Source of the DNA: Thermoplasmatales archaeon
GTDB taxonomy: Archaea > Thermoplasmatota > E2 > DHVEG-1
Length of the DNA stretch: 64,000 nucleotides
Direction: 5' to 3'
Assembly: GCA_030672305.1 (NCBI GenBank)
Contig: DAOVGR010000050.1
Coordinates: forward strand, 32,302 to 96,301
A program made the translations under genes and the position numbers. Shown piece after piece: positions 5,259-37,830 of the stretch; position 1 is the stretch's first letter; each line of letters opens with the position of its first letter. The notes below the pieces were generated by a model. The model saw nothing but the letters and a program-made list of their open reading frames with translations, ran no database searches and was not told the origin of the DNA.

Positions 5259-6713
5259 CTAAAGCAAATGGATTAATTGGTTAATTCTTGCTTTCATTTT
5301 GTATAAATCTCTATTCTTGAATATTTTCAGCATCTGTGTAGTTATATATCTTGGTCTAAGATAAAATCTTTTCATAGCCTCTCTATAAAATTCATCGAGC
5401 TCGTCCCTTGTGAAATTTCCAAGACCCTTTCGTAAATCTGCGACAATTGTGTAACCATCTCTTACATTGATTTTTCCATTTTTAACTGCCTCATCCCATA
5501 TGTCTGAACCATATTTATATGTTAAAATTGTAAACAATGCAACATCAAGAGGGAGGGAACAAGCAAACTTAATTGTTTTTTCGATATGTTCTTTTGTCTC
5601 AATTGGAGCTCCTAATATAAAGGTCCCAACAGTGAAAAAATCCATTTCACTACTAAGATTGATTGCTTTTCTAATTTGATCGGTAGTCGCATTCTTATTG
5701 TAAAAATCTAAAACATCCTGATTTGCAGATTCCAATCCATAATATAGATGTTTTACACCTGCATTTTTCATCTTAGAGTAAAGCTTCCTATTTGCAGTAT
5801 CAACCCTTGCACCCTGTACATATATCTCAATATCAGTTCCAATTTTTATCAACTTATCAAGTATTTCATTAGCCCGTTGTTCATCTGCAAGAAAAGTATC
5901 ATCAACTATCATAACAGAATCATAAGATTCATTAATTTTTTTTATCTCATTTACAACATTTTCAACAGAGCGTTGTCTAAAGATCTTAAAACCTAATGTG
6001 TTTCGTGTACAGAATCGACAATTAAAGGGACATCCCCTACCTGTTATCATAGAAGTGAATCTTGGTTTAAAATTTGATTTACTTGTTTTTCCATACTCAT
6101 ATTTTTCAACAAGATGACGAGCAGGAAAAGGAATTGAATCAAGATTTTCAATTATTGTTGCTGGTTTTCCCTTTTTGATTACGTCATTTTTTCTATAATA
6201 GATACCATGTATTTCAGATAGTTTCTTTCTCCCTTCTATTGATTCTACAATTTCCTTAATTACTTGTTCGCCATCACCTTCTACACTTATGTCAGCAGAG
6301 GGTATTTCATTTAGAGATTTTTTTGGTTGTATACTACAATGGGGACCACCAATTATAATTGGAATATCAGATTCAATTTCCTTAATATATTTCGCTACCT
6401 TTGCTGATTCTTTATAAGCATATGTATATTTGCCTCCATGCATTGTTTCTTCATAAGATGATGAAAATACACTTATTCCAACAGCATCTGTTGTTGACAG
6501 CTCTTTATTAAGAGATTTTAACGGATAACTTTCAGCTAGAAAATCTATTAATTCAACAGTATGACCTGCATTTTCTAAAACACTTCCAAGATACAAAAGA
6601 CCTAGAGGGGGGTGATATGATGATATTTTTTGTGGTTTATCTATTTTTGATGTAAAAATATAGTCCGGCGGAATTTGTAATAACAAGAATTTCATTTGAT
6701 AAATCCAAATCAT
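5259..6713 (-). CDS. B12-binding-domain radical SAM enzyme (class B radical SAM family)
   Basis: 484 aa. N-terminal cobalamin-binding-like domain PLGLLYLGSVLENAGHTVELID then a radical SAM core with CxxxCxxC (GRGCPFNCRFC). Confidence 0.8.
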   Translation of the reverse strand: MIWIYQMKFLLLQIPPDYIFTSKIDKPQKISSYHPPLGLLYLGSVLENAGHTVELIDFLAESYPLKSLNKELSTTDAVGISVFSSSYEETMHGGKYTYAYKESAKVAKYIKEIESDIPIIIGGPHCSIQPKKSLNEIPSADISVEGDGEQVIKEIVESIEGRKKLSEIHGIYYRKNDVIKKGKPATIIENLDSIPFPARHLVEKYEYGKTSKSNFKPRFTSMITGRGCPFNCRFCTRNTLGFKIFRQRSVENVVNEIKKINESYDSVMIVDDTFLADEQRANEILDKLIKIGTDIEIYVQGARVDTANRKLYSKMKNAGVKHLYYGLESANQDVLDFYNKNATTDQIRKAINLSSEMDFFTVGTFILGAPIETKEHIEKTIKFACSLPLDVALFTILTYKYGSDIWDEAVKNGKINVRDGYTIVADLRKGLGNFTRDELDEFYREAMKRFYLRPRYITTQMLKIFKNRDLYKMKARINQLIHLL

Positions 6714-6816: not shown

Positions 6817-8397
6817 ATGGACTATAAAAAATTGTTACCAATCATTGGAATAATTATTCTATTATACATAATAGTAACTCTAGATTTACAGGAAATATAT
6901 ACAGTTTTTTCAAATATTCATCCAATATATTCTCTCATCTCATTTTTTGCTATTCTTCCCGTTGTCTTAATGACAAATATTCAATGGCAAATACTGCTAA
7001 GAAAACAACGGATTAAAGTTAGCTTTCTTTATTCATTAAAAAACATATTCATTGGTTATTTTTATGGATTTATTTCACCAGGTGGGATAGGTGCTTATAC
7101 CAGAGCTTTATATCTTGAACATGAAAGTAAAGCTCCTCTTGGAAAATGTCTATCCAATATAATTATTTTCAACACAATTGATTATCTATCACTACTTTTA
7201 CTTGGAGCAATTGGTGCAATTTTTCTTAGTAGTATATATCCCCATCTTTTTGCAGTCATCATTGCTGTTATTTTTGTTATTGTTACTCTGCTTCTATTTT
7301 TTCTTAAAAAAGAAAAATCTAAAAACATATTTTTAAAAATAATTCAAACAAGAATATTTAGTTCTGTTAAGGACAGACTAACAGAATCTCTGGATTCTTT
7401 TTATGAAGATTTACCTCGTTTTAAAGACGTACTAATACCATTTGGAATTTCAATTATAGGTTGGATTGTAAGATTTACAGAACTTTACTTTATTTCAAAA
7501 CTTTTCTTAATTGATGTATCTTTTATTTATTTTATACTAATAATTGCTGTAGCAAATGTAATTGCCTCAATTCCAATAACAATATATGGGCTTGGAACAA
7601 GAGAAGCCTCGTTAATTACTATGTTTTTATTTTTTAATGTAATTCCTGAGAAAGTATTAGGTCTTTCATTGTTTTGGTTTACAATAATTTGGTTTTCCCC
7701 TAGTATATTAGGAGCTATTATAACTTATATTGAAACAAAGAAGCTAAGTATGTCATTTTTGAATGAAAAAACTGTAGAAAAGTTTTCAAATTACATGAAA
7801 AGATATCCTGAGCTTTACAGAAATCTTACTGATGTTGTTAAGAAAAATATCCCAAATAAGATTACTAAGCCAATCATTGTGGATTTAGGTGTCGGACCCG
7901 GACTACTCTCACAAGAAATAATTAAGCAGACACCCAATGCAAAAATTATAGGTATTGATCCATCAGGTAAAATGCTTAATTTGGCAAATAAAAATGTAAA
8001 AAAAGATGTGTTTCAAGCAATGCTAGGAGCCTCTGAAAACATTCCACTTGAAAAAAACACTGTGGATATTATAGTAAGCAGATTCAGCCTTACATACTGG
8101 AAGAAACCAAGAGATAGTTTTAGAGAAATCAATAGAATTTTAAAACCGGGTGGTAAGCTGATATTAGAAGCATTGAATAATAAATTTTCAAAATGGAAAT
8201 TATTTGCTATAAAGACACATATGATTTTTAATTCAGCAGGATTAGATGTTATAAGATATCATTCTGAGGCATTTAAAACAGCATATAATATCCAGCAGGT
8301 TGAACATTTGTTAAAAAATTCTGGATTCAAAATAATTTATAAAGAAGCTAAGAAAAATGACTGGAAATATATTCTAGTTTCAGGAAAGGGGAAATAA
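6817..8397 (+). CDS. Fusion protein: N-terminal UPF0104/flippase-like membrane domain plus C-terminal class I SAM methyltransferase
   Basis: 526 aa. Residues 1-300 are polytopic with the conserved WQILLRKQRIKVSFLYSLKNIFIGYFYGFISPGGIG block. C-terminal residues carry methyltransferase motif I VDLGVGPGLLSQEI, IIGIDPS and ILKPGGKLILE. Confidence 0.65.
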   Translation: MDYKKLLPIIGIIILLYIIVTLDLQEIYTVFSNIHPIYSLISFFAILPVVLMTNIQWQILLRKQRIKVSFLYSLKNIFIGYFYGFISPGGIGAYTRALYLEHESKAPLGKCLSNIIIFNTIDYLSLLLLGAIGAIFLSSIYPHLFAVIIAVIFVIVTLLLFFLKKEKSKNIFLKIIQTRIFSSVKDRLTESLDSFYEDLPRFKDVLIPFGISIIGWIVRFTELYFISKLFLIDVSFIYFILIIAVANVIASIPITIYGLGTREASLITMFLFFNVIPEKVLGLSLFWFTIIWFSPSILGAIITYIETKKLSMSFLNEKTVEKFSNYMKRYPELYRNLTDVVKKNIPNKITKPIIVDLGVGPGLLSQEIIKQTPNAKIIGIDPSGKMLNLANKNVKKDVFQAMLGASENIPLEKNTVDIIVSRFSLTYWKKPRDSFREINRILKPGGKLILEALNNKFSKWKLFAIKTHMIFNSAGLDVIRYHSEAFKTAYNIQQVEHLLKNSGFKIIYKEAKKNDWKYILVSGKGK

Positions 8398-23370: not shown

Positions 23371-24333
23371 TTATAGAATTATATCTATATCAAGTCTTTC
23401 AGCAAGTTCTTTGTATCTATTTCGAATTGTAACTTCAGTTACTCCAGCAACATCAGCAACTTCCCTTTGAGTTCTACGTTCACCACAAAGGATAGAGGCA
23501 ATATAAATTGAAGCAGCAGAAACACCAGTTGGTCCACGACCACTAGTAAGTTCTTTATCAGCTGCATCCTTTAAAATTTCAATAGCCTTTGATTGAACAT
23601 CACCGCTAAGTTTCAATTCACTACAGAATCTTGATATGTAATCCTGAGGTGAGGTTGGCATAAGTTTAAGTCCTAGTTCACGGGCAATAAAACGATATGT
23701 CCTACCAATTTCTTTTCTTGATACTCTTGAAGAACCAGCGATTTCATCCAGGGTTCTAGGCACATTACATTGCCTACAAGCAGCGTAAAGTGCGGCAGCG
23801 GAAACACCTTCAATGCTTCTTCCACGAATAAGGTTCTTTAATACTGCTTTTCTATAGATCATAGCAGCAGTTTCTCTTACATTTCTAGGTAGACCCATAC
23901 CAGATGCCATTCTGTCAAGTTCTGAAAGAGCAAAAGCTAAGTTTCTTTCAGTTGCATCACTAATTCTAATTCTTCGCTGCCATTTTCTTAAACGATATAG
24001 CTGAGCTCTATTTCTTGTTGGAATGGATTTTCCATAGGAATCTCGGTTTTTCCAACCTATCATTGTACTAAGACCTTTATCGTGAATTGTATATGTCATA
24101 GGAGCCCCAACACGAGCTCTTTTTTCACGTTGGTCAGAATCAAATGCTCGCCATTCAGGCCCATGATCAATAAAATCTTCATCTATAACAAGTCCACAAT
24201 CCTCGCAAACAAGTTCTGCTCTTGAATAATCCTTTGTTAAATGAGTACTACTACATTGTGGACATCTAGTAATTTCTTCTATACTTGGCTTTTCTCTTTT
24301 CTTTTTTGATGGATTTGGCATCATTTGGCGCAA
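23371..24333 (-). CDS. tfb: Transcription initiation factor IIB (TFB)
   Basis: 320 aa. N-terminal zinc ribbon CPQC...CEDC, B-finger/linker and two cyclin-fold repeats with the conserved HTH ([25 protein letters not shown]). Confidence 0.95.
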
Positions 24334-24390
24334 TCCCCCTTATTTCTTTTTTATACTTTGCGATATAGTTTTAAGTGACAATAAAGAACT

Positions 24391-24398
24391 TATATAAA
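24391..24398 (-). promoter_or_regulatory. Candidate TATA box of the tfb promoter
   Basis: Minus-strand TTTATATA about 58 nt upstream of the tfb start codon. Position and sequence only; not validated. Confidence 0.25.
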
Positions 24399-24892
24399 TA
24401 GTTTATGGTTAAAAAGGTATTGTCGAAAGGGGGTCTGTCTAAATAGACGATATACCCTGTCTAACGAGCAAAAACTAATTAGACAATAACAATAAGCCTT
24501 ATTAAACATATCATACGTAAAATTATATAAAATTTATGTCGCCAAAATTTTTCATAAAAATTGATAGAATGAGTTTTTTATCTATATTTCCATTATTGAA
24601 TATTGATTGGCATCCAGCAAAAGAACAATATGACATAAGAATATAAAAAAAATGATAATTTTATGAAAGTAATCTAACTAACTATAACCAAAGTCTTTGA
24701 TACTTATTGTCCCATAGTACAATCCCGCTTTGTATAAGCCCTCAATTTATGCTGGTTTTTTTTCCTTTTTTTTTCATTTTTTCTTTCTCCCATAAATGTA
24801 TTATTGTATCACGGTATCATGCAACATATATTCATGATTAATTGAAATTCTTATCTGTTCAAATTAAGAAAAAAGGATATTAGATCTTGTAA

Positions 24893-26266
24893 CTATTTTT
24901 TTAAAAAGGCTTTATACGCAAGATAAGAAGAATATATATCAACCTTACATGTAACTTCATATGGAGAATGCATACTCATTACGGGAGGTCCTAGATCAAT
25001 TACTTCCATACCAAGTCTTGAGAAGTATTTTGCAACAGTTCCACCACCACCAGTATCTACCCTTCCAAGTTCAGCGGCTTGCCAGGGAATTTTTTCTTTA
25101 TTAAGCAAGGTTCTAATTTCAAAAACATACTCTGCTGATGCATCATTTGCAGCATATTTACCACCATGACCAGTAAACTTAGACATAACAACTCCACATC
25201 CGAGAGTTGATGCATTTTTTAGTTCAAAAACTTCTGTATAGTTAGGCGTAACAGCAGCGTTGACATCTGCAGAAATAACCTTTGACTTAAGCATCACATC
25301 ATCAGGATCTATCTTTGGATCTAATTTCTTAATAATTGAACGTAAAAAGGTCGTTACCTGCGCAGTTGTGTTACCCTCACTTCCGATTTCTTCCTTATCA
25401 ACAAATAGCACAATAGCTGTGTATTCTGGGTTCTTCAAATCCATTATTGCTTTAAGAGAGGTGTAAGCACAAGCTCTGTCATCCTGACCATAAGCACCAA
25501 TTAGTGATCTATCAAAACCCATGTCCCTTGCCTTAAATGCAGGAACTGCTTCAAGTTCAGCAGAAATAAAATCTTCCTCAGTTATTCCATAGTCCTTATG
25601 TATTTTTTCTATAATTCCTGTCTTTATCTTTTCACTAATTTCACCTTTTACAGGTTGACTACCAACTGTAATATCCAAGCTTTCTCCAGTTATTGCATCA
25701 TCCAGTTTTTTTAAGGCCTGAACTTTATAAGCAAGATGAGGTAACAAATCAGGAACGGAAAATATTGGATCAGAATCGTCTTCACCAAGGGTGAATTCAA
25801 CTTTTTTACCATCTTTTTTTACAACAATACCATGTAATGATAAAGGAATAATAACCCAATGATATTTCTTTATTCCACCATAATAGTGAGTCTCAAAAAG
25901 AGCAACATTTGAAGAGGTATCTTCATAAAGTGGAATTTGTTTTAAATCAAGTCTAGGACAATCTATATGAGAAATAACAATACGAAGACCGCTACTGATA
26001 GGTTTTTTACCAGGAACAATTATCGCTGCTTCCTTTTCCCTGTTGATTTTAATTTTTTTCTTACCCAATTTAGCAATATCATTTATCTTCTGTATTGCTT
26101 CTCTTTCAGTTTTAGCTGAATCTAAAAATTTCTTATAATCTTCACAAAAATCAAATGCATTTTTTATTTTTGCTTTTGAAAATATCTCCCAAGCAGTTTT
26201 CTTTTTGTAAGCATATTTACTCTCTTTTTCTTTCTTTGAATCTTTCTTTGTACCTTTCTTTGCCAT
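24893..26266 (-). CDS. M18-family aminopeptidase (aspartyl aminopeptidase / aminopeptidase I family)
   Basis: 457 aa. M18 blocks SHIDCPRLDLK, GAYGQDDRACAY and SMHSPYE. Confidence 0.75.
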   Translation of the reverse strand: MAKKGTKKDSKKEKESKYAYKKKTAWEIFSKAKIKNAFDFCEDYKKFLDSAKTEREAIQKINDIAKLGKKKIKINREKEAAIIVPGKKPISSGLRIVISHIDCPRLDLKQIPLYEDTSSNVALFETHYYGGIKKYHWVIIPLSLHGIVVKKDGKKVEFTLGEDDSDPIFSVPDLLPHLAYKVQALKKLDDAITGESLDITVGSQPVKGEISEKIKTGIIEKIHKDYGITEEDFISAELEAVPAFKARDMGFDRSLIGAYGQDDRACAYTSLKAIMDLKNPEYTAIVLFVDKEEIGSEGNTTAQVTTFLRSIIKKLDPKIDPDDVMLKSKVISADVNAAVTPNYTEVFELKNASTLGCGVVMSKFTGHGGKYAANDASAEYVFEIRTLLNKEKIPWQAAELGRVDTGGGGTVAKYFSRLGMEVIDLGPPVMSMHSPYEVTCKVDIYSSYLAYKAFLKK

Positions 26267-26352
26267 TTGATATCCTCGAAAATAGGCATATGATATTCAA
26301 ATAAAAAGATAACTAAGTAAAATATTGGAAGAAAAAAGTGAATATTTTTTGT

Positions 26353-27243
26353 TTATCTTCTTATTACATAGACGAGAATTGCAACACCTGCAATAACAAT
26401 TATTACAATTAGTGCAACAAATAGAAGTATTGGTGAACCATCAGAATCATTATTTCCATTGGTAGAGTCAGAAGTAATAGTAATAGTTGTGATATTAAAA
26501 CCAATATTTTCATCATTATCAGTAACATAAAGTTCAACTTCATATTCACCAGGTTCTTCAAATGTAAATTTAGGATTTTGCTCAGTAGAATCTATTTCTA
26601 AATCATCATCAAAATGCCATTCCCAATCGTAAGGTTCTGTACCTCCAACAGCTTCACCATAAAATTGTATGGCTTCATCTACTTTTCCTTCAGTTGGACC
26701 ATCAATTGTAACATCGACTATAAGAATATTTGGATAAATATCTGTGTATTCATTCTCATCTCCAATCTTTCCCGTGTATACCATTATTGAATCATAATCT
26801 TCATCATCGCTAATTAGATCGAATTTAATAGTTAATTTTTTTGATCCAAATCCTGTAAGTGTGAAATCTATTTCCTCCTCACCTTCGTCTGTGATTACAG
26901 ATCCATATTCTTCTTCCAGTCCACCAAAATTAATATATAAAATTTGATATTCATTTTCTGAGGTAACTAATCCTATCGTAATAAAAACGCCTACTGTTTT
27001 CTGAATATTTCCTACAAATTCAATATCAATTGTAACTTGATTATCTTCCTTCTGATATGTAATCTCATCAAAATCTATATCAATAACACTTGGATCAGGT
27101 TTACCAGAACTATCAATAACATCACCAGAACCATCTGAAATTACTTTTGTTTCATCAGCTGCCATAACAGGACATGTTGCAGCAATTAAGAAACTGAAGA
27201 TTATTAAACCAACTATCAATATTTTTTTTATCATAACAATCAC
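26353..27243 (-). CDS. Acidic secreted PKD-domain protein with C-terminal single TM anchor
   Basis: 296 aa with a signal peptide. PKD domain (PYDWEWHFDDD...NPKFTFEEPGEYEVELYVTDNDENIGFN). C-terminal hydrophobic helix followed by RR. Confidence 0.6.
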   Translation of the reverse strand: MIVMIKKILIVGLIIFSFLIAATCPVMAADETKVISDGSGDVIDSSGKPDPSVIDIDFDEITYQKEDNQVTIDIEFVGNIQKTVGVFITIGLVTSENEYQILYINFGGLEEEYGSVITDEGEEEIDFTLTGFGSKKLTIKFDLISDDEDYDSIMVYTGKIGDENEYTDIYPNILIVDVTIDGPTEGKVDEAIQFYGEAVGGTEPYDWEWHFDDDLEIDSTEQNPKFTFEEPGEYEVELYVTDNDENIGFNITTITITSDSTNGNNDSDGSPILLFVALIVIIVIAGVAILVYVIRR

Positions 27244-27386
27244 TTTTTCAATTTGTATAGCAACCTGCTAAACAAGACCTTCTTTATAAAATTTGTTTTC
27301 CAAATATTGTAAATAAATCATTTAATTTAGACTCCGATCTAATATAAATGGTTAATACTGATTAAATTTCATTTTCTAAATAACAA

Positions 27387-27707
27387 CTATTTCAATTTCT
27401 TTTTAAGGCCTTGTACTGTTGTTGAAAAATCATCCAATGTAGATTCTAGAGTACCTAACACATCATGTATTCTATCCGTAATGACGGCTCCATGACGTGA
27501 AGGAGAAATTAAACCGTCTTTCTCAAGAGTTCTCAAAGAATATCTAATCATATGTTGTGGTTGTCCAGTCATTTGAGATAATTTTATAATTCCTATAGGG
27601 CCATGTTCTTGAACATTTTTTAAAACATCCAAATGTCTACTAAGTAGATCTAGCTCCTTTTCAGCTACACTAGTTATACTTCTCTTATTATTGACTGCCT
27701 CACCCAA
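27387..27707 (-). CDS. Winged helix-turn-helix DNA-binding protein (Lrp/AsnC-type HTH-like, no RAM domain)
   Basis: 106 aa. HTH block LDLLSRHLDVLKNVQEHGPIGIIKLSQMTGQPQHMIRYSLRTLEKDGLI. Confidence 0.55.
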   Translation of the reverse strand: MGEAVNNKRSITSVAEKELDLLSRHLDVLKNVQEHGPIGIIKLSQMTGQPQHMIRYSLRTLEKDGLISPSRHGAVITDRIHDVLGTLESTLDDFSTTVQGLKKKLK

Positions 27708-27845
27708 TAAAACACCTCCTGTTAAATGTTAACATAATACAGTACTAATATATATTTTTTACTAATACTTGGTTTAAAACAATAAAAAATAATAAAATTC
27801 AGGAAAAGAAAAAATATAAGACACATAATTGGCATTCAGTATTTC

Positions 27846-28094
27846 ATGGCTACAGGATTCGCACTTTTATCAATAAGCCCATTACACGAGAAAGAAGTGT
27901 TTAATGCTCTAAATAGTATCACTGAGATAGCTGAGGTTCATCCTCTATTTGGAGAATATGATATTCTTGTAAAAATAAGCTGCTCAGAAATAGACGAGAT
28001 TGGAGATATAGTAATTAAAAAAATTAGAGCTCTTAGAGGAATCGTTGATACTAAAACACTTATTGGAACAAGAAGTTTAGAAGGATTTCAATAA
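27846..28094 (+). CDS. Stand-alone Lrp/AsnC-type RAM (ligand-binding) domain protein
   Basis: 82 aa. beta-alpha-beta-beta-alpha-beta RAM pattern (FALLSISPLHEKEVFNALNSITEIAEVHPLFGEYDILVKI...VDTKTLIG). Confidence 0.65.
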   Translation: MATGFALLSISPLHEKEVFNALNSITEIAEVHPLFGEYDILVKISCSEIDEIGDIVIKKIRALRGIVDTKTLIGTRSLEGFQ

Positions 28095-28380
28095 ATTTAC
28101 TATTGTTTTCTCTGTTGCCGGGCGAGGTATCTAAATCTATTTTCGACCATAAAAACATGGGCAATAAATCTAATCTCGTATCTTTCTTCTTCGCTCGATA
28201 CTTGCCCTACAATCAACATTCATTTACCTTCCATTTAGCTCATGTTAATTGATAACATGAAACTCTATATTATTATATCTAATTCGTTAATATATATAGA
28301 TTTCTATTTTTTCAAAAATATTATATAATTAAAATTTAGTAATTGAATTTATATATTATGTAAATCAATATAAGATAACA

Positions 28381-30465
28381 ATGAAGAGAGTAATTATTTC
28401 ATTATTCACCATAATCTTATTGATAAATACAATAAGCCAAGTAACAAGTCAGAAAATAGAAAATAACCCCCTGCCATCATATAAAAATATAATATATGTG
28501 GACGACGACAATATTTATGGCCCATGGAACGGGACACAAGAACATCCCTATAGGTACATAAAAGATGGAATATTGAATTCAACAAATGGAGATTTAGTTT
28601 TCGTTTATAACGGAATTTACAATGAAATAATAAAAATAAATAGGTCTATAAGTTTGCAAGGAGAAAATAAAAGCTTAACTATAATCGATGGATTTTACAA
28701 TCAAGAAATAATTAATTTAGCCGAAGACAACATAAAGCTGATAAATTTTACAATCAGAAATTCAGGTGGTTATCCATATAATTCTGCAATAAAGATAAAT
28801 TCTAATAATTCCTTAATACAAAAATGTGAAATTTATAGAGCCAAAGTAGGGATTTTATTAAATAATGTAATTAACAATATAATAGATAATTGTACATTTC
28901 ATACAAACGGGCAAGGAATCCTATTTAATTCATCTGAGAGTAATATTATCACAGGTTGTGTTCTTTCGCATAATTCAATAGGTTTACATTTTGAAAAATC
29001 AAATTTCAACAATATTAGTTACTGCTATACCTATGAAAATGGTATATCATGCTATATTAATGATTCAAAAGAAATCGATATTTTTCATTGCAATATAAGT
29101 GATAATTCTGTTAATCTGGGAGGTATTTTCATTGAGAATTCTTTTAACATTACCATTGATAATTCAATATTTGGACATAACGGTGCAGGTATTAGTTTAT
29201 CATCTTCAAATGAAATTTCAATTATCAATTGCGATATTATTCAAAATACTCATTTTGCAATATCTATGCGTAAACCATCAATAAACATAGTTGTGGATAG
29301 TTGTGAGATAGTAAATAATTTTAGATACGGAATTTACATTGAAAAATTAAATTCATGTACAATTACAAATAATAACATCTATAACAATAAACTATTTGGA
29401 ATTTACTCAAGATTTACGAGATGTAGAGCACGATTAAACTGGTGGGGTTCATTACTTGGTCCAACATATATTGAAAGTATTTTTAGGGGGAGAATAACTG
29501 TTTTTTTAGGGAGAATAAGATGTTTTCCTTGGAATATTAAACCAATAAAAAATATTGGTGCGAATTGGAAAGAAAATGATCCTTACCTAACAAGAATAGA
29601 GCTATATAATCAGAATAATATTTTTAATTTTACGGGGAAAGATGTTGATGATGACGGATTGCCCGATTGGTGGGAGGAAAAATGGGGATATAGTCCATTT
29701 ATTTGGAATGAGCATGCACATCTTGATCCGGATAATGATGCATTAAATAATTTCGAAGAATGCTATACTGATAAGTATGGTTCAGATCCTTTCTATCAAG
29801 ATATATTTCTTGAGATAGACTGGATGGAATCAAACCATCTGGATATATCAAACAAACCATCTGAAAATCTTATAGAAGAAATAGTTACAATTTTTGAGCA
29901 ACATAGTATTGCTTTACATGTTGATATTGGTAATTTGGAGGGAGGTGAAGAAATTCCAATTTGTAACTCAGCATTTTCATATTCAAAATTACAGGATCTC
30001 TATTGGAAATACTTTCTGCAAAACGATTTAAACAATCCTCGCAAAGGAATATTTCACTATGGAATAATTTGTAATTATTGTCCTGATCTAAATTTTCCAT
30101 TTTTTGGATGGGATCATTTTGATTCATTCGCAATATCGGCAAAATGGTTAAAGGATTTAAATCCACTCACTAGTATAGACAATCTAATCGGTGGAGCACT
30201 TGTTCATCATCTTGGCCATACATTAGGATTAATTGCAGATAAATATGGAGGAATTGATAATACTGGATCTTCCCGTATATTTACAATACAATGGCTTAAA
30301 TATAGAAACTATGAAAGCTGTATGAACTATCGTTATAAATACAAAAAATTTTCATTTTCAGATGGTACTAATGGTCGCGGTGACTTTAACGACTGGGACA
30401 ATCTTGATTTTTCATTTTTTAAAGATACGAACTTTCAATATAGAAAGTTTTTAGATTTTCCATAA
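28381..30465 (+). CDS. Secreted beta-helix / metzincin-like protein, paralog 1 (HExxH degenerated to HHxxH)
   Basis: 694 aa with a signal peptide. N-terminal right-handed parallel beta-helix (NosD/pectate-lyase-like) opening block YVDDDNIYGPWNGTQEHPYRYIKDGILNSTNGDLVFVYNGIYNE. Ca-binding-like DVDDDGLPDWWEE and DPDNDALNNFEE. C-terminal zincin-like block ALVHHLGHTLGLIADKY and Met-turn-like SCMNYRY. Confidence 0.7.
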   Translation: MKRVIISLFTIILLINTISQVTSQKIENNPLPSYKNIIYVDDDNIYGPWNGTQEHPYRYIKDGILNSTNGDLVFVYNGIYNEIIKINRSISLQGENKSLTIIDGFYNQEIINLAEDNIKLINFTIRNSGGYPYNSAIKINSNNSLIQKCEIYRAKVGILLNNVINNIIDNCTFHTNGQGILFNSSESNIITGCVLSHNSIGLHFEKSNFNNISYCYTYENGISCYINDSKEIDIFHCNISDNSVNLGGIFIENSFNITIDNSIFGHNGAGISLSSSNEISIINCDIIQNTHFAISMRKPSINIVVDSCEIVNNFRYGIYIEKLNSCTITNNNIYNNKLFGIYSRFTRCRARLNWWGSLLGPTYIESIFRGRITVFLGRIRCFPWNIKPIKNIGANWKENDPYLTRIELYNQNNIFNFTGKDVDDDGLPDWWEEKWGYSPFIWNEHAHLDPDNDALNNFEECYTDKYGSDPFYQDIFLEIDWMESNHLDISNKPSENLIEEIVTIFEQHSIALHVDIGNLEGGEEIPICNSAFSYSKLQDLYWKYFLQNDLNNPRKGIFHYGIICNYCPDLNFPFFGWDHFDSFAISAKWLKDLNPLTSIDNLIGGALVHHLGHTLGLIADKYGGIDNTGSSRIFTIQWLKYRNYESCMNYRYKYKKFSFSDGTNGRGDFNDWDNLDFSFFKDTNFQYRKFLDFP

Positions 30466-30551
30466 TTATATATAGATAAAATTATATATTGATAGGATTA
30501 ACATAAATTGGAGGAAATAATCTGAATAAAAAATATCTTTGTGTATTTATT

Positions 30552-32597
30552 TTGATTATGCTCTTACCAACAACTTTAAGTCAATCAATAACGCCAAGTG
30601 AAATAATTATTTCTGCTAAAAATTCAAAAATTATATATGTTGATGATGACAACATAAATGGACCATGGAACGGGACGAGTGAGCATCCTTATAAAACAAT
30701 AAATGATGGAATTTTTAATGCATCAGAAGGAGATACAATATATGTTTTTAATGGGACGTATTTTGAGAATGTAACAATTGAAAAAAGATTAAATTTAATT
30801 GGTGAAAATAAAAACCTAACAATAGTTGATGGACAATATCAAAATTATGTGATTAATGTTATTGAAGATAGTGTTATTATTGAAAATTTTACCATCAGAA
30901 ATTCTGGAGGTTACAAAGAAAATGCTGGAATAAAACTTGATTCAAATAATAACACAATTAAAGAATGTAAATTTTATAGAACAAAGTCTGGAGTCTATAT
31001 ACATAATAGTAATAACAATCAAATCAAAGACTGCACATTTCACACAAATGGTGAAGGTATTTACATCAAATCATCAAATAATTGTAAAGTAGATGAGAGC
31101 AGCTTATACCACAATGGAATAAGTGTAAATATTCAAGATTCTTATGAAATTGAAATCAAAAATTCCTATGAACACACAAGTGGTTATGGTTTTTTAATTA
31201 ATAATTCATCAAATATTAATATGTCAAATTGTGCAGTTTATGATAACAACGATAATGGAGGTGGACTACTAATTACAAATAATAAGGATATCTGCATCTT
31301 CAACTGTAATATTGTTCATAATGGTCATGGTCTAAATCTTTATGACTGTACAAATATCGAGGTTTTAAATTCAGATTTTATTTGGAATACACATTTAGCA
31401 ATTAGGATCGGGAAAAATACATGTAATTTAAAAATAGAAAATTGTGAAATTACCAACGGTTTTAGATATGGAATTACTGCTGAAAAAAGTAGGTTTAAAC
31501 TTAGAAATAATAACATGCATGCAAATCTTTTTGGAATAAATATTAAGAAATCATTATGTGATGCTAGAAAAAACTGGTGGGGTTCAAGCTTAGGACCGGC
31601 ATTATTACATAGGAAAGAAAAAGATAGAATGTATTTTAAACTAGGATTTATCAGATTTTTCCCATGGCTAATACGTAAAAATGAAAATGCAGGATCAAAC
31701 TGGGAAATAGACTTTGATAAGTATAAAAATGAAATCAATTTGTATCGATTTAAACAAATTGAGCTATCTGGAAATGATAGTGATAATGATCTTGTACCAG
31801 ATTGGTGGGAGGAAAAATGGGGATATAACCCATTGATTTGGGATGACCATATTAACCTAGATCCTGATTTTGATGGATTAAATAATATCGAAGAATGTTA
31901 TACTGATAAGTGGAACTCTAGCCCAATTAAAAGAGATATCTTTATTGAATATGATTGGATTGAGTCCGTCACTTCAAATAAATCAGCAAATAAACCCACA
32001 AAGGAAAATTCTAATCAATTGATTGAGGTTTTTTCTGACCATGATATAACCCTTCATCTTGACAATGGAAGTCTAGGCGGTGGGGAGATGATTCCATTTA
32101 TTTCTGATTTTTCAATGTCTGATTTACGCGATATGTATTGGGATTATTTCCTTCATAATGATTTGAATAATCCAAGAAAGGGAATTTTTCATTGGTGTCT
32201 GGTAAGCGATTATGGCCCATATCCTGGTCTTCCGGGGTTTGCAGTTGTAGGTTGGGATCATCTTGACAGTTTTGAGATATCAGCACAGAGAATGAAAGAA
32301 GGACATCCTTTTAAAAGTAAAGGTTACATAATAGCAAGCATAACTATGCATGAACTAGGTCACAATCTTGGTTTATTTGTTGATGATCATATAGGAATTG
32401 ATAATGATATATCAACTATACCTTTTTTATTGGAGCTCTTAAAAATTAAACGTTACAAAAGCTGTATGAATTATTTGTATACTTATTGGATACTTGATTA
32501 CTCTGATGGTTCACATGCTATAAATGATTTTGATGATTGGGGAAACATCGATCTTTCATTTTTTAAAAACACTCATTTTGAATGGCCAAAAAATTAG
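30552..32597 (+). CDS. Secreted beta-helix / metzincin-like protein, paralog 2 (intact HExxH)
   Basis: 681 aa. Same architecture as 28381-30465 (YVDDDNINGPWNGTSEHPYKTINDGIFNASEGDTIYVFNGTY; DSDNDLVPDWWEE; DPDFDGLNNIEE). C-terminal HELGHNLGLFVDDH and SCMNYLY. Confidence 0.7.
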   Translation: MIMLLPTTLSQSITPSEIIISAKNSKIIYVDDDNINGPWNGTSEHPYKTINDGIFNASEGDTIYVFNGTYFENVTIEKRLNLIGENKNLTIVDGQYQNYVINVIEDSVIIENFTIRNSGGYKENAGIKLDSNNNTIKECKFYRTKSGVYIHNSNNNQIKDCTFHTNGEGIYIKSSNNCKVDESSLYHNGISVNIQDSYEIEIKNSYEHTSGYGFLINNSSNINMSNCAVYDNNDNGGGLLITNNKDICIFNCNIVHNGHGLNLYDCTNIEVLNSDFIWNTHLAIRIGKNTCNLKIENCEITNGFRYGITAEKSRFKLRNNNMHANLFGINIKKSLCDARKNWWGSSLGPALLHRKEKDRMYFKLGFIRFFPWLIRKNENAGSNWEIDFDKYKNEINLYRFKQIELSGNDSDNDLVPDWWEEKWGYNPLIWDDHINLDPDFDGLNNIEECYTDKWNSSPIKRDIFIEYDWIESVTSNKSANKPTKENSNQLIEVFSDHDITLHLDNGSLGGGEMIPFISDFSMSDLRDMYWDYFLHNDLNNPRKGIFHWCLVSDYGPYPGLPGFAVVGWDHLDSFEISAQRMKEGHPFKSKGYIIASITMHELGHNLGLFVDDHIGIDNDISTIPFLLELLKIKRYKSCMNYLYTYWILDYSDGSHAINDFDDWGNIDLSFFKNTHFEWPKN

Positions 32598-33718
32598 TCT
32601 TCCTTCCATTTTGTAAGAGCAAGCCCTATTATGAAAAATATCGCTGCAAAAATTAAAACAAAAATGGTATTAATAGTTGCATCTGCCGTTTCAAGTTTTA
32701 TCATACTATCACGCAAACCTTCATTTACGTAATACAATGGAAGAACTCTTGCAACTAATTGCAGGAACTCTGGCATCATATCCAATTCAAAAAATGTTCC
32801 AGCAAGAAACATCATTGGAAAAGTAACAGCTCCACCTGCCATGCCAGCAGATTCTTCATCTTTTACAAAACGACCAATCATCATCCCAAGGCCTGTGAAA
32901 AGAAAGCTTGTTGCAATTATGATTACTATCATCAATGCAGTAACATGTACATGAAGTCCATAAATTAAGACACCAACAGCAATAATAATCACAGTTGAAA
33001 GAAAAGATAAAAAGAGCTGAAAGAGCATTTTTGAAATAATCCATTCGGATCTTGTAATTGGTGTAGTCAATAATTTTCTAAGGATTCCATCTTTTCGATA
33101 TTTTGTATTTCTCTCAAGGCTTCCATAAATACACGTCTGCATTATTGTAAAACCAATCATACCTGGAATAAAAAAATCAATATATGAAAATTCTCCACTA
33201 ATTGTCGTAACATCCTGAAGACCAATAATTTCTCTACCACCAGAAACATTCATATTTGTGTTTATAACAAAATATGATATTATATCCCTGATCTGTTGAT
33301 TAGTGGTTTGTTCGCTTTGATCAAAATAGAACATTAAATTTGAAGTTTCAGTCGAATTAGGGTTTTGTTGGGACATAATTATTGCTTCACTAAAATCTTC
33401 AGGAATTACAAGTACCCTTTTAATGTCATTTTCATCCATATACGATTTAATATCTTCGTCTTTTGGTACATTTTTAATATTTATATAACCAGTAGATTCC
33501 AGTCCTTGGAGAAAACCTTCAGTTATACCAAATTCATCATCTTCATCTAAATTTTGGACATAAAGATCAAACTCTACCTCACCTATGCCAGAAAAGATTG
33601 CGCCAAAAATTAAAATAAGCATTACAGGAAAAGCAAGAGTCCAAAACAGTGTAGCTCTGCTACGAAAGAATGATTTCAAATCGGTTTTAAAGCCTGCGAT
33701 TAAAATTTCTGGTCTCAT
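32594..33718 (-). CDS. ABC-2 family transporter permease
   Basis: 374 aa. N-terminal TM then a large extracytoplasmic domain and a C-terminal 5-TM bundle typical of ABC-2 permeases. The 5-prime end overlaps or abuts the ATPase gene. Confidence 0.7.
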   Translation of the reverse strand: MRPEILIAGFKTDLKSFFRSRATLFWTLAFPVMLILIFGAIFSGIGEVEFDLYVQNLDEDDEFGITEGFLQGLESTGYINIKNVPKDEDIKSYMDENDIKRVLVIPEDFSEAIIMSQQNPNSTETSNLMFYFDQSEQTTNQQIRDIISYFVINTNMNVSGGREIIGLQDVTTISGEFSYIDFFIPGMIGFTIMQTCIYGSLERNTKYRKDGILRKLLTTPITRSEWIISKMLFQLFLSFLSTVIIIAVGVLIYGLHVHVTALMIVIIIATSFLFTGLGMMIGRFVKDEESAGMAGGAVTFPMMFLAGTFFELDMMPEFLQLVARVLPLYYVNEGLRDSMIKLETADATINTIFVLIFAAIFFIIGLALTKWKED

Positions 33719-34803
33719 TAGGATTCCTCCATCAGTTTAGAGCCAGTCAGATGTAAGAAAACCTCCTCAAGATTTGACCTGCGTATATCAATACTATCAT
33801 ACTCAGCGCATTCATGTCTAAGAATTGATAAAACCTCAAGAACTCGGTCCTTATTATCGATTTTTATTTGGATATCTCCATTTTGTCCCACACTTGCATT
33901 ATATTCTCTTTCATTTAATATGTCAACTACATCTTTTGTTGTGCAGTTCTTTATATGAAGAATGTTTTCTTTACCATACTTATTAATTAATTCAGCAAGT
34001 GACCCCTCAGCAATAATATTTCCCTTATGAATAATTGCAATATGATCTGCTAAATACTCTGCTTCTTCCATATAGTGAGTCGTTAAAAAAACTGTTTTTC
34101 CTTTATTGCGTAGACTTGCAATTACATCCCATACCTCTCTTCTTGCTTTTGGATCAAGACCTGTTGTTGGTTCATCAAGAAAAACAATTTCAGGATCATT
34201 AACCAGTGCAATTGCAACTCCTACACGTTGTTTCAAACCACCTGATAAATTCATATAGAGTTTATTTTCTTGATCCTTAAGGTCCATAGAACCAATAATT
34301 CCATCAATATTTGCTCTTTTTTTGTAAAGTTTGGAAAAAAATTCTAAAGTTTCTCTTACAGTAATTCTCTCAAAAGAATGGTACTCTTGCGGAAGTATTC
34401 CGATTTTTTCCTTTAATTTATCAAATGAGGAGCTAATATCTTCTCCAAGTAATTTTATAGATCCCGCTGTTGGTTGACGTATTGATTCAATCATTTCAAC
34501 AGTTGTCGTCTTTCCTGCGCCATTTGGACCCAAAAATGCAAATACTTCCCCTTTTTTAACAGAAAATGAAATAGAATTTACTGCAACAAGATCATCATAA
34601 ACTTTTTTAAGATTTATTGCTTCTATTGCTACATCATCCGATACAACAACTTTTTTAAAAGTGACCTTTCCTTTTTTTCCGCATTCAGGACAAGAAACAA
34701 GAGTAACTTCTCCAGGACTACCAACACTAGTAATAATATTACCACATTGCGGACATTTAACTTTTTTTTCAACCATAAATGTACCTTTTAATGAGCACCT
34801 CAA
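33718..34803 (-). CDS. ABC transporter ATP-binding protein with N-terminal double CxxC zinc-ribbon
   Basis: 361 aa. Walker A GPNGAGKTTT, signature LSGGLKQR and Walker B VFLDEPT. Residues 15-45 contain CPQCGN...CPECGKKG. Confidence 0.85.
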   Translation of the reverse strand: MRCSLKGTFMVEKKVKCPQCGNIITSVGSPGEVTLVSCPECGKKGKVTFKKVVVSDDVAIEAINLKKVYDDLVAVNSISFSVKKGEVFAFLGPNGAGKTTTVEMIESIRQPTAGSIKLLGEDISSSFDKLKEKIGILPQEYHSFERITVRETLEFFSKLYKKRANIDGIIGSMDLKDQENKLYMNLSGGLKQRVGVAIALVNDPEIVFLDEPTTGLDPKARREVWDVIASLRNKGKTVFLTTHYMEEAEYLADHIAIIHKGNIIAEGSLAELINKYGKENILHIKNCTTKDVVDILNEREYNASVGQNGDIQIKIDNKDRVLEVLSILRHECAEYDSIDIRRSNLEEVFLHLTGSKLMEES

Positions 34804-34824
34804 TATAAAAAGTGGTATTTATCT

Positions 34825-35532
34825 TTAAGGATTAAGTAATTGTTTATCTATTAAATTCAAATTTTGATTAAAATTATATATAATTGGAATTCCAGTGGGA
34901 ATTTCAACATTTGGTATTTCTTTTTCTGATATATTTTCTACATGCATAGTTATAGCTCGAAGACTATTACCATGAGCTGAAACAAGAACTGTTTTATCTT
35001 CTTTTAAATCCTTAAGGATATGTTTTTTGAAATAAGGAATTGCACGTTCACAAGTATTTTTTAAACTTTCACCGCCAGGTGGATTTACATCATAGCTACG
35101 CCGCCAAAGATGGACCTGCTCATTTCCATATTTTTCTCTTGTTTTTTGTTTATTTAATCCCTGAAGATCCCCATAATATCTCTCTGCTAAATCTACAGAC
35201 ATATAAATTGGAATTTCATTAGTAGGATCACCCGAATGATGCTCCCAATCGTGTATTTTTTTATCTTCGTGAAAAATAATAGGAGTGCGTTCATCATTAG
35301 AATTAATTAAAATATAATGAAGGGTTTGAATTGCCCGTAACATATGTGAAATATATACAGAATCAAACTTAACATCTTTTAGTTTCTCACCTGCAGAAAT
35401 TGCTTCTTCAATACCTTTTTTGGATAAAGGAACATCTATCCATCCTGTAAAACGATTTTCCAAATTCCATTGAGATTGTCCATGTCTTACCAATATTAAT
35501 TTAGACATAACACCAACTCCGCTATATGTCAT
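34825..35532 (-). CDS. gpmA: Histidine-phosphatase superfamily phosphoglycerate mutase (2,3-BPG-dependent type, GpmA-like)
   Basis: 235 aa. N-terminal LILVRHGQSQWNLENRFTGWIDVPLSKKGIEEA with the catalytic RHG. Confidence 0.8.
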   Translation of the reverse strand: MTYSGVGVMSKLILVRHGQSQWNLENRFTGWIDVPLSKKGIEEAISAGEKLKDVKFDSVYISHMLRAIQTLHYILINSNDERTPIIFHEDKKIHDWEHHSGDPTNEIPIYMSVDLAERYYGDLQGLNKQKTREKYGNEQVHLWRRSYDVNPPGGESLKNTCERAIPYFKKHILKDLKEDKTVLVSAHGNSLRAITMHVENISEKEIPNVEIPTGIPIIYNFNQNLNLIDKQLLNP

Positions 35533-37030
35533 ATAGATTGTAATATTTATTTTTTAAATAATTAACAAAAACTTTTGCATTTAATCCTTCACCACATGCG
35601 TTTTTTATTATTTCATCAGCAGTCATCATCCGTCCATATTTATGAACATTTTCTCTAAGCCAAATAATGATATTTCTAAAATCTCCCTTTTCAATATTAG
35701 ATAAAATACTTGGATTTTCATCTGTCAATTTTTTAAAAAGTTGAGATGAATAAATAGATCCAATAGCATAAGTTGGAAAATAACCAAAATTCCCACCGCT
35801 CCAATGCATATCTTGTAACACACCATCTTTGTCGTTCTTGGGAATAATTCCTAGTATCTCATCCATCTTATTATTCCATATCTCTGGTAATTCAGATACT
35901 TTTATCTTATCATCTATAAGAGAATTTTCAAGTTCAAAACGAAGAATTACATGTAAACAATATGTTAATTCATCTGCCTCTACTCTAATAAAAGAGGGTT
36001 TAACAGAATTAACATATCTATACCAAATATCAATATCCAAATCCTTAAGTTGATCTGGTGATTTTCTCTTAAAAATAGGATAAAAATAATTCCAAAAATG
36101 TTTGCTACGACAAATCATGTTTTCCCAAAAACGAGATTGCGATTCATGTAAGCCTAAAGAGGGGGAATCTGAAATTACAGTATATTTGAACTCATCTCTT
36201 GGCACTCCTAATTCATACAGGGCATGTCCTGCCTCATGAGCTGTTGAAAAAAACGAAAACAATGGATTTTTTCTTTCATAATTTGTTGTAATTCTAACAT
36301 CATTATAGCCCATAGAGGTAGTAAAAGGATGTGTAGACATATCTATTCGAGATTTATCTTTTGGTAGGAGCATAGTTTCAATAACAATATTACAGATTTC
36401 TCTTTGTTTTTCAATGGGAAATTTCAAATCTATTTCATGTTGTTTTTTAAAAAGCCTGCTTGTTTTAATTTTCTCAAGAATATCGATAATTTGGGTTTTA
36501 AGATATTTAAATTCCTTTTTTAATTTATCAACAGTCATACCCTCCTCATAATCATCAACAAGAGTGTTATATCTTGGACCTGGAAGATTAATATAACCGC
36601 AATATTCTTTCTCAAGTTCAACTATTTTTTCAAGGTAAGGAATAAATATTTTAAAATTACTCTTCTCCCTTGCTTCTTGCCATGCCGGATATGCAAGAGT
36701 TGTCGTCTTTACCATCCTTTCAACAAAACTGGACGGTATCATCCTTGCCTTTTCAACATCCTTTTTTAGTCTAGTTACAACTGCTTTATCTTTGGGGGGT
36801 AAATTTTCGAAATTTTTTGATTTCGATAAATTTTCAATGTGTTTCCAAAGCTTATCCGAAATAACCTTTTCGTGAGAAAGTCTTGAAATAAGAGCAGTTT
36901 GCTCGGATCTATCCGATGCACCCATTGGCGGCATATAAGTCATTTGATCCCATCCCAAAAGTGCAGCAATACCGCCAAAAGTGGATAGCTCTTTTTGTTC
37001 TTTATAGATAAAATCTAAGGGTTCTTTCAT
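35522..37030 (-). CDS. M32 carboxypeptidase (carboxypeptidase Taq family)
   Basis: 502 aa. HEAGHALYE zinc motif and the M32-specific HESQSRFWEN block. Confidence 0.85.
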   Translation of the reverse strand: MKEPLDFIYKEQKELSTFGGIAALLGWDQMTYMPPMGASDRSEQTALISRLSHEKVISDKLWKHIENLSKSKNFENLPPKDKAVVTRLKKDVEKARMIPSSFVERMVKTTTLAYPAWQEAREKSNFKIFIPYLEKIVELEKEYCGYINLPGPRYNTLVDDYEEGMTVDKLKKEFKYLKTQIIDILEKIKTSRLFKKQHEIDLKFPIEKQREICNIVIETMLLPKDKSRIDMSTHPFTTSMGYNDVRITTNYERKNPLFSFFSTAHEAGHALYELGVPRDEFKYTVISDSPSLGLHESQSRFWENMICRSKHFWNYFYPIFKRKSPDQLKDLDIDIWYRYVNSVKPSFIRVEADELTYCLHVILRFELENSLIDDKIKVSELPEIWNNKMDEILGIIPKNDKDGVLQDMHWSGGNFGYFPTYAIGSIYSSQLFKKLTDENPSILSNIEKGDFRNIIIWLRENVHKYGRMMTADEIIKNACGEGLNAKVFVNYLKNKYYNLYDI

Positions 37031-37044
37031 TTGCTCTCCTCAAT

Positions 37045-37830
37045 TTAGATGTCAATTTCAATTGGACAATGATCAGATCCCATAACATCTTGCATAATAA
37101 ATGCCTTTTTAAGATGCGGTAATAACTCCTTATTTACAAAGAAATAATCTATTCGCCAACCTACATTTCTTTCTCTAGCACGTGTTTTCATATCCCACCA
37201 GGTGTACTGATCTGGTTCTTTGTTAAAGTATCTAAACGTATCAATATATCCATGATCAATGAAGGTATCTATCCAAGCTCGTTCTATTGGCAAAAAACCC
37301 GAGATTTTTTCATTTTCTTTTGCTCTTGCAAGATCAATTTCTTTATGAGCTGTGTTAAAATCACCACATACCATTATGTTTTTGCCTTTCGTTTTTAGAT
37401 TATCAGCATATGCTAGAAACGTATCATAAAAATCTAATTTATAATTAAGCCTTTCCTGGTTTTTTTTACCATTTGGAAAATAGATATTAAACAAAATAAA
37501 AGAAGGAAATTCACAAATAAGGGTTCTACCCTCATTATCAAATTTATCTATTCCAAATCCCTTTTTAGAATCAATGGGTCGTTCTTTTGAAAATATTACC
37601 ACACCACTGTAGCCCTTTCTTTCAGCCGGATTCCAATAGACATTATATCCAGGCATGTTTCTCAGATAGGGAGGTACTTGTTCTGGTTGAGCCTTGATTT
37701 CTTGTAAACAAAGAATATCCGGAGATTCTTTTTTAAACCAATCATATAATCCTTTTTTTTCGGCTGCTCTAATACCATTAACATTCCATGATATTATTCT
37801 CATCGTAAATGGTATATTGAACAAGAACAT
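37045..37830 (-). CDS. xth: Exodeoxyribonuclease III / AP endonuclease (Xth family)
   Basis: 261 aa. [20 protein letters not shown] and C-terminal SDHCPI catalytic blocks. Confidence 0.85.

Follow-up and report, generated by a model that had tools for sequence, protein, structure and literature searches.

The window analysed here, a 64,000-nucleotide stretch of contig DAOVGR010000050.1 of a Thermoplasmatales archaeon, carries two tandem genes on the forward strand. Paralog 1 (28381-30465) is an intact open reading frame (ORF) of 694 codons, as given by the ORF list and its translation, and is followed by paralog 2 (30522-32597), which encodes 691 aa if translation starts at the CTG at 30522; the ORF lister placed its start at the TTG at 30552. 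Full-length identity between the two proteins is 47%, and both consist of a hydrophobic leader, a right-handed beta-helix, acidic TSP3-like repeats and a C-terminal metzincin-like domain of about 220 aa (in paralog 1 aa 472-694, 29794-30462, as delimited by an AlphaFold2 model and Foldseek).

The putative zinc-binding helix reads HHLGHTLGL in paralog 1 (30205-30231) and HELGHNLGL, a canonical HExxHxxG motif, in paralog 2 (32349-32375), exactly as an initial annotation of this DNA had read it. In paralog 1 the zinc ligands His609 and His613 and the glycine Gly616 are kept and the general-base Glu is replaced by His610, with His609 and His610 both encoded by CAT (30205-30210). The motif stands in the context GGALV-HHLGHTLGL-IADKYGGIDN in paralog 1 and SITM-HELGHNLGL-FVDDHIGIDN in paralog 2, followed by ESCMNYRYK and KSCMNYLYT, respectively, and direct reading bears out that the SCMNY Met-turn is retained in both (30316-30330 and 32460-32474). 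The paralog 1 segment at 30316-30339 comprises the Met-turn S-C-M648-N-Y650 and Lys653, a derived residue that is Thr in the HExxH relatives. Over 65 family members the Ser and Tyr of the Met-turn are invariant and the Met and Asn are at least 90% conserved.

In comparison with the metzincin zinc consensus HExxHxxGxxH/D, paralog 2 shows HELGHNLG with Val at position 11, the canonical place of the third ligand, and paralog 1 shows HHLGHTLG, without the Glu and with Ala at that position; positions 11 and 12 thus read V-D and A-D. The Asp at position 12 (Asp620 in paralog 1, 30238-30240) had been put forward as a possible third ligand. It is indeed present in both paralogs, but it is conserved in the close clades only, and outside them the position is occupied by S, T, N, W, H or G. 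The Asp at position 18, within G-x-D-N, is likelier to play this part: both paralogs keep it (GIDN with D626 at 30250-30261 in paralog 1, and GIDN at 32394-32405 in paralog 2), and across the family its conservation is 90% or higher. The 'PIPGH' members have His in its place, and family members with a short loop have a canonical HELGHQLGLPH with His at position 11. Given this conservation, the replacement by His and the correspondence to the position-11 His of the short-loop members, the GIDN Asp is more likely to be the third zinc ligand and would be supplied through a loop insertion of about seven residues.

The AlphaFold2 models of the C-terminal domains, built with a 65-sequence alignment, had predicted local distance difference test (pLDDT) values of 94.6 for paralog 1 and 95.8 for paralog 2, and showed a five-strand sheet and an active-site helix, with strands and helices following one another as in metzincin catalytic domains. 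When compared with the PDB using Foldseek, the paralog 1 domain was closest to the adamalysin 1yp1 (E = 2.6e-3, probability 1.00) and that of paralog 2 to the snake-venom adamalysin 1kuf (E = 2.7e-4, probability 1.00); fragilysin, ADAM33, ulilysin and PAPP-A came after the adamalysins and the top matches were all metzincins. Sequence searches of the PDB, with single sequences and with a profile, gave weak matches to adamalysins as well (E 0.005-0.03). The isolated domains matched no Pfam or NCBIfam model at threshold, Matrixin and Reprolysin_3 being sub-threshold: paralog 2 reached 13.1 bits against the 22.4-bit cut-off of Reprolysin_3, for which paralog 1 gave no match. Weak matches to Reprolysin_3/5 were seen in 4 of the 65 family members, and a few distant members gave weak matches to the Pfam models Reprolysin_3/5, DUF4953 (Met-zincin) and TSP3_bac. 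Both paralogs show the Met-turn and, in the models, the fold of the metzincin clan MA(M). Membership of family M12B was rejected for both, the Reprolysin score being below gathering and HExxHxxGxxHD being absent. Judged from the models, the C-terminal domains are an apparently uncatalogued family of the metzincin clan, structurally closest to M12B yet outside it.

An exhaustive profile search recovered 324 representatives at E<=1e-30, many weaker matches being to the TSP3-like repeats alone. Almost all the related loci come from metagenome-assembled genomes of uncultured Thermoplasmatota/Thermoplasmatales, the closest being locus L003 (CAZHIY010000005) and locus L027 (Thermoplasmatales archaeon SG8-52-3); the window, with about 30% GC, encodes a TFIIB and is archaeal. 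Our literature search found nothing on this archaeal family, on HHxxH metalloproteases or on a Glu-to-His change in HExxH.

The substitution is confined to one group of sequences. Across 138 aligned C-terminal domains, the residue following the first His is Glu in all 88 sequences outside this group, and inside it His in 45 and Gln in five; among the 64 representatives at 50% identity that have the domain, 58 are HE, four HH and two HQ. The 45 independent homologues with HHxGH come from other assemblies, and orthologues encode this His by either CAT or CAC, a variation that excludes a read error and indicates selection on the amino acid; the codon of the Gln variants is CAA. The change from Glu to His itself requires two nucleotide substitutions (GAA to CAT). 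In full-length neighbour-joining trees from which three HQLGS sequences were pruned, the HH group, together with one HQLGH sequence, was monophyletic in 288-299 of 300 bootstraps (96-99%), and the support persisted, with the same pruning, when four columns distinguishing the group (described below) and the motif region were deleted. Since no conflicting split exceeded 1% and the support after pruning was this high, the HH clade can be taken as robust on the available sequences; the inclusion of the HQLGS sequences is a parsimony argument from an N/S-P-K signature that they share with the clade. The initial annotation had asked whether HH and HE interchange freely among orthologues or whether the codon is a sequencing error, and neither was found: Glu-to-His is fixed in one lineage and never interchanges with Glu. 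Further losses have occurred within this lineage, namely HQLGH (L011) and HQLGS (L023, P0003, P0014, P0020, P0096 and P0109). The HQLGS sequences have lost the general base as well as the second His that binds zinc, and keep the N/S-P-K signature; P0014 also has GNYN in place of GNDN. Gly616 is changed to Lys or Arg within the HH/HQ lineage. We also observed SSMNY in some of the HQLGS members.

The exchange of the general base did not occur in isolation. With a cut-off of 80% or more in both sets, just three columns distinguish the clade from the HExxH relatives: residue 571 (Gly to Asn), residue 610 (Glu to His) and residue 653 (Thr to Lys). Inspection adds a fixed Pro573, the clade having N-F-P-F where the relatives have G-F-[A/S/T/V]-F. 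In paralog 1 the derived Asn and Pro lie in the edge (fourth) strand N571-F-P573-F (30091-30102, model strand E160-163). Column 571 is Gly in 100% of the E-types and Asn in 94% of the HH/HQ clade, and column 653 is Lys in 100% of the clade and Thr in 85% of the close E-types. The four states co-occur without exception, as HNPK, QNPK or QSPK in the clade versus E-G-x-x in the relatives. We take residues 571-574 to be the antiparallel strand at the upper rim, to which the substrate backbone docks in metzincins, and Lys653, three residues past the Met-turn Tyr, presumably belongs to the stretch that as a rule forms a wall of the S1' pocket. By inference from the model, then, N571, P573 and K653 would be located at the cleft.

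The ratio of non-synonymous to synonymous substitution rates (dN/dS) of the two copies, which had been proposed as a check, was calculated by NG86 among the three genomes with the tandem pair (the window, L003 and L027) and revealed strong purifying selection on both. The HH copy had values of 0.084-0.107 in the C-terminal domain and 0.19-0.24 in the N-terminal domain; the corresponding values of the HE copy were 0.092-0.116 and 0.16-0.17. The mean distance of the catalytic domain to the outgroup was 1.047 for the HH-types and 1.028 for the HE-types, without rate acceleration. The matching dN/dS values and the equal outgroup distances indicate that the HH domain is, as far as substitution patterns tell, as constrained as its presumably active HE sister and not decaying.

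The HH-type gene is often accompanied by a gene with an intact motif. The HH-then-HE tandem is kept in the window, L003 and L027, and in the complete chromosome CP070798 the two types are about 19 kb apart (L004 and L021). Short HECGH proteins are encoded upstream of the HH-type gene in L010 and L030, HELGH and HEMGH proteins flank it in L016, a HETGH protein is encoded near it in L009 and a HELGH fragment upstream of it in L001. In all, 8 of 19 HH/HQ loci have another HExxH gene of the family beside them, versus none of 15 HE-only loci (Fisher p = 0.0045); the association between HH-type and HExxH genes is suggestive rather than conclusive.

In order to place paralog 1 among known systems, it can be compared with the human proteins ADAM29 (HHLGHNLGMNHD) and ADAM7 (HQLGHNLGMQHD), both listed as pseudopeptidases with the Met-turn kept in a 2024 review (PMC11266112, Table 2). 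Their HHLGH and HQLGH are the very local motifs of the archaeal lineage; His ligands and Met-turn are retained in both cases, the metzincin fold is common to them, and it is to adamalysins that both window domains are structurally closest. As expected of a pseudopeptidase of this type, paralog 1 has its general-base Glu replaced while fold and Met-turn are preserved, and the replacement is fixed under selection. However, the window domains are only 12-18% identical to adamalysins and have no HD third-ligand dipeptide at positions 11-12; the proteins lack disintegrin, Cys-rich and transmembrane modules, have an N-terminal beta-helix and TSP3-like repeats instead, and are archaeal and secreted. 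The archaeal HHLGH and HQLGH arose independently of those of ADAM29 and ADAM7, so that the likeness is a convergence. The active snake-venom reprolysins and fragilysin share with the archaeal domains the five-stranded sheet, the HExxHxxG helix and the Met-turn (Foldseek probability 1.00, target-normalised template-modelling scores of 0.44-0.60), but in the archaeal domains the loop from the Gly to the probable third ligand is about seven residues longer (HExxHxxG-x9-D), the Met-turn is S-x-M-x-Y with an invariant Tyr, and an additional acidic repeat module stands N-terminal to the domain. A Met-turn with an invariant Tyr is also found in astacins and serralysins.

Taken together, we lean towards the view that paralog 1 is a metal-retaining pseudo-peptidase, at most a crippled peptidase, or a binding module. 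The fold, H609, H613, D626, the Met-turn and its Tyr are all kept, which suggests that the domain probably still holds a metal. The general-base Glu is exchanged for His610, and Asn571, Pro573 and Lys653 are inherited with it in one lineage, on which purifying selection is the same as on the intact HExxH relatives. The domain would have lost efficient peptide hydrolysis and would serve as a ligand- or substrate-binding module instead. It probably partners active HExxH family members, whose genes are frequently neighbours of the HH-type gene, paralog 2 being the example in the window. The HQLGH and HQLGS branches, which go further in their losses, are what would be expected if catalysis were no longer selected. 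The suggestion in the initial annotation of an active enzyme paired with a pseudo-enzyme therefore stands as to the lineage-fixed Glu-to-His change, the purifying selection, the HExxH neighbour and the precedent of ADAM29 and ADAM7; its other half, the inactivity of paralog 1, is a prediction that we infer from sequence. The paralog 1 lineage is in this sense a variant of a known phenomenon, with a predicted function.

Several points weigh against this interpretation. His is able to act as a general base, and Glu mutants of metzincins reportedly keep measurable residual activity, as Cha and Auld are said to have found in 1997 for matrilysin. The near-strict keeping of His (45 of the 50 clade members) and of all metal ligands, along with a newly fixed Lys and an Asn-Pro pair, gives the impression of selection for a particular new site and not of simple loss. 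The phylogenetic argument is weaker once the HQLGS sequences are included, the monophyly of HH plus HQ then dropping, depending on the columns used, to 15-42% in full-length trees and 10-69% in trees of the C-terminal domain; these sequences form long, unstable (rogue) branches whose placement varies. The count of adjacent HExxH genes is inflated by relatedness, and with five independent arrangements the p value is 0.043. Finally, the inactivity of ADAM29 was assigned from sequence in the review (PMC11266112).

The alternative that survives best is that paralog 1 is still a hydrolase, in which His610 would serve as general base or proton shuttle and Lys653 and Asn571/Pro573 would retune the cleft to another substrate (e.g. 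anionic or non-peptide) or pH optimum. We consider it doubtful. In its favour, the metal ligands, Met-turn and Tyr are strictly kept, His610 is maintained across synonymous codon changes with three more cleft residues fixed alongside it, and the constraint equals that on the HE copy. The Gln found in five of the 50 clade members and the HQLGS sequences that lack a zinc ligand are hard to square with an essential catalytic His. The backbone NH of the metzincin edge strand is a normal contact for substrate docking, and the Pro in that strand would, from general knowledge of metzincins, eliminate it. Moreover, ADAMs with these very motifs, HHLGH and HQLGH, are counted as inactive (PMC11266112).

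A bolder proposal, and one that we put forward as rather unlikely, is that the HHxxH lineage has a rebuilt active site, composed of His610, Lys653, Asn571/Pro573 and the retained metal, with a new chemistry or specificity, and that it would be an obligate partner of the co-encoded active metzincins in sediment Thermoplasmatota. If true, this would be a prokaryotic pair of a selected pseudo- or neo-enzyme and an enzyme in extracellular protein degradation. An altered metal site, closed, saturated or non-zinc, with His610 as an extra ligand or with a changed metal preference and a structural or metal-binding role, is in our estimation improbable. Three His in five residues, Asp626 and Tyr650, all conserved, would suit such a site, as would a shift of about +2 in its net charge (E to H and T to K); against this, Gln replaces His in some members, and a residue at i+1 of an alpha-helix points about 100 degrees away from the face of the ligands i and i+4, so that direct coordination by His610 would need distortion. 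That the codon is misread, or that the gene is a pseudogene decaying by neutral drift, is scarcely credible, even if an apparent frameshift interrupts the HH-type gene at L001 and L030, and is effectively refuted by the intact 694-codon ORF, the 45 independent sequences, a dN/dS of about 0.1, the two-nucleotide change, the lineage-fixed H/Q and the CAT/CAC codons.

Returning to the pseudo-peptidase or binding-module interpretation, the family offers a natural series from the active-type HExxH through HHxxH/HQxxH, which keep the metal site, to HQxxS, in which a ligand is lost, all of them under purifying selection. Animals have many well-studied pseudo-proteases (ADAMs, iRhoms); in archaea such proteins have, to our knowledge, rarely been documented. 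The family could thus be a tractable microbial system for the role of a Glu-to-His metzincin site, and it bears on extracellular protein processing by benthic Thermoplasmatota.

Regarding the split genes, the HH-type gene lies in two overlapping ORFs with an apparent frameshift in L001 (1429-2764) and L030 (1389-3453), which could be an assembly error or true pseudogenisation. Split or truncated ORFs are also found at the HE-type loci L032 and L038, which suggests assembly noise.

The remaining parts of the two proteins are as follows. Paralog 1 begins with a putative signal peptide, MKRVIISLFTIILLINTISQVTSQ (28381-28452, judged by eye from the translation), and continues with a parallel beta-helix of the NosD-like/pectin-lyase-like type (aa ~62-343, 28564-29409), for which Pfam PF13229 and PF05048 scored above their gathering thresholds (Beta_helix 1.1e-23, NosD 4.6e-16). 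In paralog 2 the Beta_helix match was 4.7e-36 and NosD was likewise above threshold. The likeness to NosD and parallel beta-helix repeat proteins is confined to the N-terminal domain of both paralogs. NosD proper was rejected, TIGR04247 giving 63 bits for paralog 1 and 76 bits for paralog 2 versus a 300-bit cut-off, without a nos operon context, the genes around them encoding TFIIB, peptidases of families M18 and M32 and an ABC-2 transporter.

The TSP3-like acidic repeats lie N-terminal to the protease-like domain, at aa 421-471 of paralog 1 (DVDDDGLPDWWEEKWGY...DPDNDALNNFEE, 29641-29793, with nearly invariant D/E/N columns) and at 31780-31930 in paralog 2, and follow the pattern D-x-D-x-DG-x-PDWWE...DPDxDGLNNxEE. 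Some family members match the Pfam model TSP3_bac, and the module has a weak match to the calcium-binding segment of the binary toxins Vip1Ac and C2-II. A profile that contained this module recruited thousands of giant multi-repeat proteins. Nucleotide identity between the paralogs reaches 81% in the TSP3 stretch (paralog 1 aa 428-468), with 72% at third positions, the values elsewhere in the pair being 46-68% and 30-62%, respectively; the high identity of this stretch may reflect local gene conversion or codon constraint. Gene conversion was rejected as the source of the similarity of the tandem copies, with the possible exception of this short stretch.

The two genes are separated by a 56-nt AT-rich spacer (30466-30521) with a GGAGG at 30510-30514. 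A plausible signal peptide of paralog 2 (MNKKYLCVFILIMLLPTTLSQS) requires the start at CTG 30522, located 7 nt past the GGAGG, and the arrangement GGAGG-N7-CTG is common to the window and the orthologous loci L003 and L027. The start context GGAGGAAAT[A/T]ATCTGAATAAAAAA (30507-30560 in the window) is kept in L003 (~6897-6990) and L027 (~5869-5990), and the downstream TTG/ATG of paralog 2 in the window is without conservation there, which suggests a conserved non-canonical CTG start for this gene. Upstream of paralog 1 (28340-28381), inspection of the sequence shows an AT-rich TATA-like element (TTTATATATT) about 25-33 nt before the ATG and no Shine-Dalgarno motif; such a layout would suit a leaderless transcript of the archaeal kind and differs from the Shine-Dalgarno-plus-CTG arrangement of paralog 2.

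Scans of the window for tRNAs and Rfam families were empty. The neighbourhood on both sides (23371-28094 and 32594-37830) is rich in peptide-catabolism genes. It comprises, on the reverse strand, an M18 aminopeptidase (24893-26266), a PKD-domain protein (26353-27243), a small winged helix-turn-helix protein just upstream of paralog 1 (27387-27707), an ABC-2 permease with its ATPase (32594-34803) and an M32 carboxypeptidase Taq (35522-37030), and, on the forward strand, a stand-alone Lrp/AsnC ligand-binding domain of 82 aa (27846-28094), also just upstream of paralog 1.

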